In this document: positions 45,984 to 52,403 of the stretch, one piece after another | How positions within the stretch are numbered: position 1 is the first letter of the stretch | Layout of the letters: every line of letters starts with the position of its first letter | NCBI RefSeq assembly: GCF_048403405.1 | Contig: NZ_CP183129.1 | Source of the DNA: Escherichia coli | Lineage (GTDB): Bacteria; Pseudomonadota; Gammaproteobacteria; Enterobacterales; Enterobacteriaceae | Strand: one strand, 5' to 3' | Length of the DNA: 64,000 nucleotides | Made by a program: the position numbers and the translations under genes | The notes under the pieces: model-generated | Database searches by the model: none | Told to the model about the DNA's origin: nothing | Seen by the model: only the letters and a program-made list of their open reading frames with translations

Positions 45984-46550
45984 ATGAGTAAGTTTGTAAA
46001 AGCAGCAGTTGCCACGGCAATGCTCATGGGGGCGCTGACTTCAGCATCAGTCGTTGCCGCAGGGAACAACGGTACAGTGAGATTTTACGGCACAATTGAA
46101 GACTCCCCGTGCTCAATTGTTCCTGACGATCATAAACTGGAAGTGGATATGGGCAGCATCGGTACGGGTTCTTTAACCGGCGGCAAAACAACCACACCAA
46201 AAGATTTCCAGATTCGTTTACAGGACTGTAATTTCAATACAGAAACGACAATGGCTACCACATTCACCGGTAATCCGTACTCCACTAACGCAGATAACTA
46301 TTCTCTGTCTAACATGGATAATGGAACTGAAATTCCAAACGTTAGCCTGGTTATCGGTGACCAGCACGGTACAGGTTATGCACTGGGAGCAGAGATTAAG
46401 CAACCTATCGTGAAGGACAGTTCAACGGGAAAAGGCAAGCCTAAACAAACTCTGAACTTTAAAGCATGGTTAGTGGGTGAAACGGATGCTGTAACACCAA
46501 CACCGGCACCGTTTGAAACGCTGACGACGTTCCAGATCACGTATCTCTAA
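45984..46550 (+). CDS. yfcV: Fimbrial major subunit (188 aa)
   Basis: Signal peptide, Cys pair, C-terminal donor-strand motif (TTFQITYL); followed by the attenuator hairpin CCCCATAgctgcaaagTTATGGGG. Confidence 0.75.
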   Translation: MSKFVKAAVATAMLMGALTSASVVAAGNNGTVRFYGTIEDSPCSIVPDDHKLEVDMGSIGTGSLTGGKTTTPKDFQIRLQDCNFNTETTMATTFTGNPYSTNADNYSLSNMDNGTEIPNVSLVIGDQHGTGYALGAEIKQPIVKDSSTGKGKPKQTLNFKAWLVGETDAVTPTPAPFETLTTFQITYL

Positions 46551-46621
46551 TGTATTTTCCCCATAGCTGCAAAGTTATGGGGTTTATAACTACCAAATAA
46601 CTAAATTATAAAAAATCATGG

Positions 46622-51032: not shown

Positions 51033-51553
51033 AGAAAAAGTGTGCGTTGATTTTTATCAATAGCCTGCTGTTGCTGAACAGCGGCACCACAACAGCGGTA
51101 GATAATCTGCACTTTACCGGCAATTTAATCAGTAAATCGTGTACACCAGTGATCAACGGTAGCCAGTTGGCAGAGGTACATTTTCCTGCCATTGCCGCCA
51201 GCGATTTAATGAACATTGGGCAGTCAGAGCGAGTGCCGTTGGTCATTCAATTGAAGGATTGTCAAAGTTCTACATCGCTGAGTGTCAGAGTCACGTTAAC
51301 GGGAACAGAAGATAGTGAACTGTCCGGATTTCTGGCTTTTGACGCCTCGTCTTCTGCGTCCGGCGCTGGGATTGGAATTGAAACAGCGGCAGGTATACCA
51401 GTGCCAGTCAACAATACAACAGGCGTCACGCTCCCGCTGACTCAGGGAAATAACAGCCTAAATTTTAATGCCTGGTTACAGGCGAAGAGCGGGCGGAATG
51501 TAACGTCCGGTGACTTTAACGCCACTGTGACGGCAACTTTTGAGTATTTATAA
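51029..51553 (+). CDS. yfcP: Fimbrial minor subunit (174 aa)
   Basis: Signal peptide; pilin-like C-terminus (VTATFEYL). Confidence 0.6.
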   Translation: MKKKCALIFINSLLLLNSGTTTAVDNLHFTGNLISKSCTPVINGSQLAEVHFPAIAASDLMNIGQSERVPLVIQLKDCQSSTSLSVRVTLTGTEDSELSGFLAFDASSSASGAGIGIETAAGIPVPVNNTTGVTLPLTQGNNSLNFNAWLQAKSGRNVTSGDFNATVTATFEYL

Positions 51554-52403
51554 CATGAAAAAATGGACCCTATTTTTCGCGAGCCTGATGCTGCTTGTCC
51601 TGAATGTTGTCGGCACACCCAAGAGTTATGCTGGAGATAAACTTATGAGTTCAAGTTTCGACAGTGTGAGAATTTATTATGCGATGGACACGATAACAGG
51701 GATAGCTTCGTCTATTGTTCTCAATGTTACGGTGGTAACACCAGGGGAGGTTGCATATGGAAAATATAGTTTTCTTGCGCGTAAGGGGGATACGCTTCCG
51801 CGTATTTCCTGGACGGGGTCGGGCCCGGCACCAACTCTGGTTATAACGGATTATGATACGATTAATAATTCAAATTGCCCCGGTATTGATACGGATATTT
51901 TCCGTTGTGCATATATGACCTTAAAGATCACCGTTGCATCTGATAATTATGGTTGCCCGTGGATCGCGTCCTTTTATTCATATACAAACTTATCTGGATT
52001 TGGAAGCTACACGAGCCCGACTGTGCATAACTCAATATGCCCAACGATACCGGTCGCCTCCTATGATATCTCCTGGAGTGAAAATTATGTCAGTCATAAT
52101 AAAGCGCTACAGCTACAGTCCACGGGGTCGACAATTACCACCACGCTTTCGACCTACCTGATGGAAAACGGCAAACTCTGTGACGGCAGCGTTTTTGATA
52201 GTAGAGGTGCATACTGCCGTGCGGTATCAGAACTGTTAACCTTTACCTCTTATGGCTGCGACAAATCAACGGTAACGGTGACCCCCACACGTCATCCGGT
52301 AACCGATAAAGAGTTACATGATATCGTTGTGAAGGTGAATACCAGCAGTCGGCAACCGATTGATTCTACGTGTCGTTTTCAGTATGTATTGAATGAGTTG
52401 TAG
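51540..52403 (+). CDS. yfcO: Putative fimbrial tip adhesin (287 aa; alternative start at 51555)
   Basis: Last and largest subunit gene of the operon, Cys-rich. Confidence 0.55.
   Translation: MSIYNMKKWTLFFASLMLLVLNVVGTPKSYAGDKLMSSSFDSVRIYYAMDTITGIASSIVLNVTVVTPGEVAYGKYSFLARKGDTLPRISWTGSGPAPTLVITDYDTINNSNCPGIDTDIFRCAYMTLKITVASDNYGCPWIASFYSYTNLSGFGSYTSPTVHNSICPTIPVASYDISWSENYVSHNKALQLQSTGSTITTTLSTYLMENGKLCDGSVFDSRGAYCRAVSELLTFTSYGCDKSTVTVTPTRHPVTDKELHDIVVKVNTSSRQPIDSTCRFQYVLNEL

Follow-up and report, generated by a model that had tools for sequence, protein, structure and literature searches.

A strongly diverged allele of the yfc chaperone-usher operon between sixA and smrB in Escherichia coli

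The fimbriae encoded at the yfc locus of Escherichia coli have been assigned to the pi clade of chaperone-usher systems, and E. coli W and O157 carry a pi-type cluster at the sixA-yfcN position that is distinct enough for another name (PMC3032704). Wurpel et al. (2013), whose fimbrial types combine usher phylogeny with locus position, placed Yfc among the core-associated fimbriae and reported the yfc cluster to be intact in every genome examined (PMC3559732); the yfc genes show unusually high nucleotide diversity, and their gene trees disagree with multilocus sequence typing (MLST; PMC4850163). In K-12 MG1655 the usher gene, yfcU (b4661), is a pseudogene by annotation. Here we describe the seven-gene operon that occupies this locus, at positions 45984-52403, in a 64-kb stretch of E. 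coli DNA (contig NZ_CP183129.1; “the window” below means the whole of this stretch). The feature is an ordinary E. coli yfc-locus chaperone-usher operon, already annotated in public genomes; we hold with high confidence that it represents one of several deeply diverged allelic forms of the locus and should, by homology, work by the standard chaperone-usher pathway.

The operon stands in the same gene order as in K-12, fadJ-sixA-[operon]-smrB-prmB-aroC, with smrB (yfcN) on the opposite strand. The first-pass annotation of this DNA had called it a complete yfc chaperone-usher operon of seven uninterrupted genes, and both statements stand: seven consecutive plus-strand open reading frames (ORFs) run without interruption from 45984 to 52403, and their Pfam content, in order, is Fimbrial; PapC_N, Usher and PapC_C; PapD_N and PapD_C; Fimbrial three times over; and DUF2544; position, gene order and domain content are all as in K-12. 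The gaps within the operon range from −26 to +83 bp, and such tight packing is what would be expected of one operon. Over the 7,081-bp query 45323-52403 there is 100% identity to a RefSeq genome, TUM14771, in which the Prokaryotic Genome Annotation Pipeline (PGAP) places the same seven genes with starts that differ slightly.

Within this conserved frame, the operon is a strongly diverged allele and not a repaired copy of the K-12 operon. In global alignments with K-12, the proteins of the operon are 67% (YfcV), 81% (YfcU), 84% (YfcS), 52% (YfcR), 49% (YfcQ), 55% (YfcP) and 46% (YfcO) identical, whereas the flanking proteins, compared by BLASTP, are 100% (SixA), 99.4-99.7% (SmrB, PrmB and AroC) and 97.6% (FadJ) identical. 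A 200-bp sliding comparison of the DNA shows about 98% identity to K-12 and then 60-80% directly past the sixA stop; the low identity spans the upstream region (about 60-68%) and the whole operon, and recovers about 400 bp into smrB. Over the distal half of the operon, megablast gave no match to K-12.

The nonsense codon of the K-12 usher is a separate matter. Translation and pairwise alignment show that the only lesion in K-12 yfcU is an in-frame amber codon (TAG) at codon 579, which confirms the statement in the first-pass annotation that the K-12 usher is a pseudogene; the aligned codon in the window, at 48362-48364 on the plus strand, is TAT (Tyr). Strain YD786 has an usher with 98% identity to that of K-12, and there the 61-mer around codon 579 has TAC for TAG as its sole difference from K-12; the K-12 defect is thus one C-to-G nonsense substitution (TAC to TAG). 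Of 5426 complete E. coli genomes, 363 contain the exact K-12 amber 61-mer, the examples listed being largely laboratory K-12 derivatives, and a further 1410 contain one-base variants of it. An intact usher is the rule in E. coli and K-12 the exception, and the special status that the earlier annotation had implied for an open usher falls away: the exact amber context is present in only those 363 genomes, and the cluster has been reported intact across genomes (PMC3559732). That the usher of K-12 is a pseudogene by one amber codon and open in natural isolates is a textbook curiosity confirmed.

To place the allele among its relatives, we compared six versions of the locus: those of the window, K-12, the B2 strain UM146, O157:H7, YD786 and K56-43-un. 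Several allele classes and clear mosaicism were found among them. YD786 combines a K-12-like V-U-S module (YfcV, YfcU and YfcS, 92-98% identical) with a window-like R-Q-P-O module (85-95%; against the window, YfcR 95%, YfcQ 94% and YfcP 85%); the R-Q-P-O proteins of O157 are 68-81% identical to those of the window; and the UM146 and K56-43-un versions form one further class. The V-U-S module of the window is distinct from that of the other five versions (YfcV 67-74%, YfcU 77-81%): within a comparison limited to yfc-locus ushers, its usher shares 81% identity with K-12 YfcU and 77-81% with the others, and its YfcV matches that of UM146 at 74% of protein and 73.6% of DNA positions. The yfcV gene of UM146 (L003:8048-8611) is annotated as a pseudogene, incomplete and with its C-terminus missing, and the usher of that strain is intact; together with K-12 yfcU, this indicates that inactivation strikes different genes in different lineages.

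Nearly every E. coli has some version of the operon, the locus being matched in 5408 of the 5426 complete genomes. At an identity of at least 95%, the whole 7-kb region of the window recurs in about 555 of them, and yfcV with its upstream segment recurs at 90% or more in 633, including enteroaggregative E. coli (EAEC) 042, an O15:H18 ST69 strain and an O127:H6 strain; EAEC 042 and ST69 we take to belong to phylogroup D. Allele divergence and heterogeneity of the yfc locus as such are already documented in the literature.

How the allele arose, and how it stands to the K-12 operon, can be judged from these comparisons. The reading implicit in the first-pass annotation was that the window carries the K-12 yfc operon merely without the usher nonsense mutation, the same fimbria in working order. 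Locus, gene order and the tyrosine at the amber position all agree with this, and the parts of the claim that concern the locus and the open usher are correct; but proteins only 46-84% identical to those of K-12 between flanks at 97.6-100%, a distal half without a megablast match, and the existence elsewhere of a truly K-12-like intact usher (YD786, 98%), from which the window usher at 81% is clearly distinct, show that this is not the operon of K-12. We rejected a K-12 operon with a good usher on the identity matrix of the six versions, and give that reading next to no probability. The sharp boundaries of divergence at the sixA stop and inside smrB, the mosaic structure and the incongruence of gene trees with MLST (PMC4850163) could also speak for a recent horizontal import, the resident operon having been replaced with that of another species through homologous recombination in the flanks. 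On comparisons made within E. coli, we consider such an import unlikely: the GC content of the operon (48.5%) lies near the window mean (48.2%), 5408 of 5426 genomes have some form of the operon here, the upstream regions of the alleles can still be aligned with one another, and the window allele is itself widespread in E. coli (633 genomes); long-standing allele classes that are exchanged within the species would account for all this at least equally well. A more far-reaching extension of the allele-class reading, which we put forward only tentatively, is that the yfc locus is a long-lived balanced polymorphism in which a promoter-pilin-usher-chaperone module and a minor-pilin-adhesin module are reshuffled among lineages; the window class (about 12% of complete genomes) would then carry a YfcO N-domain with a receptor specificity of its own, and the DUF2544 adhesin would perhaps have a lectin fold without a solved relative. 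Were this true, only the receptor and the structure would be new, the polymorphism itself being already in the literature.

The individual genes are those of a complete chaperone-usher system. The first (45984-46550, plus strand, as are all seven) encodes a YfcV-like major fimbrial subunit of 188 aa (Pfam Fimbrial, E 4e-18) that resembles StfA below the equivalog cutoff. The second encodes a YfcU-like outer-membrane usher, intact and without internal stop, in which PapC_N (E 5e-36), Usher (E 5.5e-188, profile positions 3-549 of 549) and PapC_C (E 4e-14) are full length; against NCBIfam NF011812, its best NCBIfam match and a Stf/Yfc-type subfamily, it scores 1794 bits, with a cutoff of 972. The first-pass annotation gave this protein 883 aa. 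Its intactness holds, but 883 aa is the length of the longest possible ORF, starting at 46622; the likely protein has 879 aa (46634-49273), from the start that PGAP uses in TUM14771 and that matches the N-terminus of K-12 YfcU. The YfcS-like periplasmic chaperone (49293-50042, 249 aa; PapD_N E 5.6e-37, PapD_C E 8.7e-12) is StfD-like, and its translation contains DRTR and RIKLFWRP, presumably the PapD-type subunit-anchoring Arg/Lys motifs.

Three minor subunits follow, each with the Pfam Fimbrial domain: a YfcR-like, StfE/SteD-like protein of 182 aa by the PGAP start (50017-50565); a YfcQ-like, StfF-like protein of 156 aa (50562-51032), whose start overlaps the yfcR-like stop by 4 bp; and a YfcP-like, StfG-like protein of 174 aa (51029-51553). 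For the yfcR-like gene, a start at 50017 or later is more likely than one at 49951; a signal-peptide-like segment, MKGSCSVWAV..., begins 14 codons after the PGAP start. Four proteins of the operon match PF00419 (Fimbrial) above the gathering score, and in 20 pilins from the six alleles F163, T168 and the penultimate Y173 do not vary. The best named NCBIfam matches of the non-usher proteins are components of Salmonella Stf and then Ste, all below equivalog cutoffs.

The last gene (51555-52403), which begins 1 bp past the end of the yfcP-like gene, encodes a YfcO-like DUF2544 protein (PF11245, E 6.4e-79) of 282 aa that is presumed to be a tip adhesin of StfH/YfcO type and that PGAP calls “StfH/YfcO family fimbrial adhesin”. 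Its ATG at 51555 is more likely to be the start than a TTG at 51540. Among the six alleles, identity is 28-80% (mean 41%) over the N-terminal part, about residues 27-165, and 59-91% (mean 72%) over the C-terminal part, residues 166-282, which closes with an invariant CRFQYxLNEL. In Salmonella, swapping StfH alleles changed binding to cell lines, and the variation of StfH lies mainly in its N-terminal half (PMC5343171). The YfcO-like protein shows a matching pattern of a variable N-terminal and a conserved C-terminal part, which makes an adhesin role plausible by homology and gives indirect support to the “tip adhesin-like” of the first-pass annotation.

DUF2544 proteins form a very small family: when 1.84 billion representative proteins were searched with a profile, 75 clusters came back at E<=1e-3, of which about 18 are full length, and all clusters tested from this search proved to be DUF2544. 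By sequence, the YfcO-like protein has no relative in the PDB, and the family is without a solved structure. A confident AlphaFold2 model built on a 25-sequence alignment (predicted local distance difference test, pLDDT, 88; predicted template modelling score, pTM, 0.78) shows two beta-sandwich domains, for which a specific structural neighbour was not found; the YfcO family gave no match to the pilins of the operon when profiles were compared with each other, and neither sequence nor fold revealed a FimH- or PapG-like lectin domain. To the questions of receptor and structure in the YfcO/StfH family, the window adds nothing unique.

Past the yfcO-like stop, a REP-like (repetitive extragenic palindromic) element may lie before the 3' end of smrB, at 52422-52486 and without assigned strand; the evidence for it is weak, sub-threshold matches to Rfam naRNA4 of 31 and 29 bits on the two strands where the gathering score is 59.5. 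The intergenic regions were also searched for a structured RNA or sRNA, and the idea was rejected: Rfam at E<=1 gave only these sub-threshold REP/naRNA4 matches, 3' of the operon. The spacer between yfcO and smrB measures 66 bp in the window, 70 bp in K-12 and 319 bp in UM146. In the 3' part of smrB, a diverged tract (52470-52850) has 81-90% DNA identity to K-12, whereas the SmrB protein is 99.5% identical; the differences in the tract are nearly all synonymous and look like hitch-hikers with the adjacent fimbrial allele.

We infer the assembly of the fibre as follows. Sec would export the subunits; the PapD-like chaperone would fold and cap them by donor-strand complementation; and the usher would polymerise them by ordered donor-strand exchange into a fibre built of the YfcV-like protein as major pilin, accompanied by three pilins in minor or adaptor roles and, at the end, a two-domain adhesin of the YfcO/StfH type, whose variable N-terminal domain would set receptor specificity. 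Transcription would most likely start in the 661-bp, 29% GC region upstream of yfcV and would probably be held low by H-NS in the laboratory.

This AT-rich sixA-yfcV intergenic region (45323-45983, read on the plus strand) is the presumed promoter or regulatory region and a candidate H-NS target. The earlier description of an extremely AT-rich upstream stretch of about 660 bp was accurate: its 661 bp have a GC content of 29.0%, the lowest for a stretch of that length in the window (mean 48.2%). At its beginning, we infer by eye a probable intrinsic terminator of sixA (45335-45372, plus strand), an AGGCCCG/CGGGCCT stem followed by a T-run; its hairpin loop of 14 nt is beyond the limit of the terminator scan, which therefore did not list it, and in the alignment K-12, O157 and YD786 have a hairpin of other sequence at the same place. 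The spacers of the six alleles, including those of K-12, O157 and the B2 strain, are homologous but strongly diverged. Conserved blocks lie mostly in the last ~170 bp: CACGCCAAAGAATA at 45831-45844, which reads CAC[G/A]CCAAAGAATA across alleles, and TTCATTGGCT at 45885-45894, which reads TTCA[T/A]TGGCT across alleles; the ribosome-binding site and start, TTTAAGGACAAATAATG, are invariant among the six. We would look for the promoter in this last ~170 bp, with its conserved blocks. Within 45323-45983, a scan with the sigma-70 consensus found no convincing promoter and fewer sites than in shuffled sequence, the H-NS high-affinity motif TCGWTWAATT was not enriched, and neither an ORF longer than 35 aa nor an Rfam match was present; the repeats are short and imperfect, as expected of AT-rich DNA. 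H-NS represses many of the cryptic chaperone-usher operons of E. coli according to Korea et al. (2010; cited in PMC3559732), and from the AT content and this literature H-NS silencing of the upstream region is a reasonable expectation.

A local phase-variation switch, by fimS-type inversion or by a pap-type Dam/Lrp mechanism, might act here in place of simple H-NS silencing. Many chaperone-usher operons are phase variable, and the upstream region contains two GATC sites, at 45414 and 45425. These sites are, however, 11 bp apart, against about 100 bp in pap, and do not form a pap-like pair that would indicate a Dam switch in 45323-45983; a repeat search and a listing of small ORFs found no fimS-type invertible element there, the best inverted repeats (22 nt at 73% and 10 nt at 90%) lying in low-complexity AT sequence and none that is good surrounding a promoter segment; and no recombinase or PapI/PapB-like ORF is present, none upstream exceeding 35 aa. 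We regard such a switch as extremely unlikely. It could also be argued that the operon is a transcriptionally dead relic in which stop codons have not yet accumulated and which makes no functional organelle: such operons have been called cryptic under laboratory conditions (PMC3559732), the AT content upstream is extreme, and no convincing promoter was found there. Yet the seven ORFs are open here and in O157, YD786 and K56-43-un, as they are, except for yfcV, in UM146, despite 20-55% protein divergence, K-12 yfcU and UM146 yfcV being the exceptions seen; and conservation is much stronger in the usher, the chaperone and the YfcO C-domain than it is in the pilins and the YfcO N-domain, a pattern of purifying selection on the machinery and diversification of the exposed parts. 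Moreover, yfcV is differentially expressed in transcriptomes of Shiga toxin-producing E. coli (STEC), and K-12 Yfc, when expressed, raised adhesion to cells of the bladder (Korea et al. 2010, as cited in PMC6033998). A dead relic is thus very unlikely in our judgement: the open reading frames and the conservation of the machinery argue, at the level of sequence, for continued selection on function and against decay, and the window strain may make functional Yfc fimbriae.

The practical consequences of a diverged allele concern naming and typing. Several very different fimbriae share the name “yfc” at this one locus, which matters for virulence-gene typing and calls for caution in carrying K-12 Yfc adhesion data over to other strains. 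VirulenceFinder applies a threshold of 85% specifically so as to tell the yfcV that marks uropathogenic E. coli (UPEC) from the “cryptic” yfcV of K-12, and excludes variants that are less than 85% identical to the primer-containing sequences (PMC7512150). If UM146 yfcV represents the UPEC-marker allele, the window strain would probably score yfcV-negative in VirulenceFinder; and the UPEC predictor in which yfcV is one of four markers is allele-specific and would probably miss the window allele. Otherwise the operon has little importance beyond its correct annotation.

Other parts of the window were also of note. The first ~35 kb (1-35107) belong to a P22-like lambdoid prophage integrated at argW, a tRNA-Arg(CCT) gene (35033-35107, minus strand); similar E. 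coli prophages (96% identity, 74-78% coverage) have a portal, a P22-type capsid, DNA-transfer proteins, a tailspike, a glucosyltransferase and IntS, and phage-borne tRNA-Asn and tRNA-Thr genes lie at 12971-13126. TUM14771, which is 99.9-100% identical to the window over 35026-63743, has at the same tRNA-Arg (L007:10211-26369) ipuA/ipuB invertases, the phase-variable autotransporter UpaE and dsdCXA, and no prophage; such different cargo in near-identical backbones makes argW a variable integration hotspot. Between fadL and mlaA, a block of low GC content (32-36%) at 37200-39000, annotated in TUM14771 with a 427-aa “hypothetical protein” (about 37351-38634, minus strand), may be another horizontally acquired, H-NS-type target.

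In conclusion, the operon can be set against four described systems. With K-12 yfcVUSRQPO (yfcOPQRSUV), which is cryptic, it shares the locus (sixA, operon, smrB), the seven-gene order and the domain content; usher and chaperone are 81% and 84% identical, the pilins and YfcO 46-67%, and K-12 alone of the two has the amber codon 579. Other alleles of the locus, namely the “epo” cluster of O157:H7 and W (ECs3222-3216), the B2/UPEC-type yfcV and the YD786 mosaic, have the same locus and architecture; the R-Q-P-O module of the window is close to those of YD786 (85-95%) and O157 (68-81%), whereas its V-U-S module is distinct. Stf of Salmonella enterica (stfACDEFGH) provides the best named NCBIfam matches, StfA, a StfC-like usher, StfD, StfE, StfF and StfG, followed by Ste, and likewise has a terminal protein of the StfH/YfcO family that varies mainly in its N-terminal half; given that the window pilin and chaperone score below the equivalog cutoffs, we regard the two as homologues and not as the same fimbria. 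With type 1 (Fim) and P (Pap) pili, finally, the operon shares the usher, the PapD-like chaperone, pilins with a penultimate tyrosine and a larger terminal protein, but it differs from both in showing no FimH- or PapG-like lectin domain by sequence or fold, and in having neither the fimB/E switch nor the papI/B regulators.

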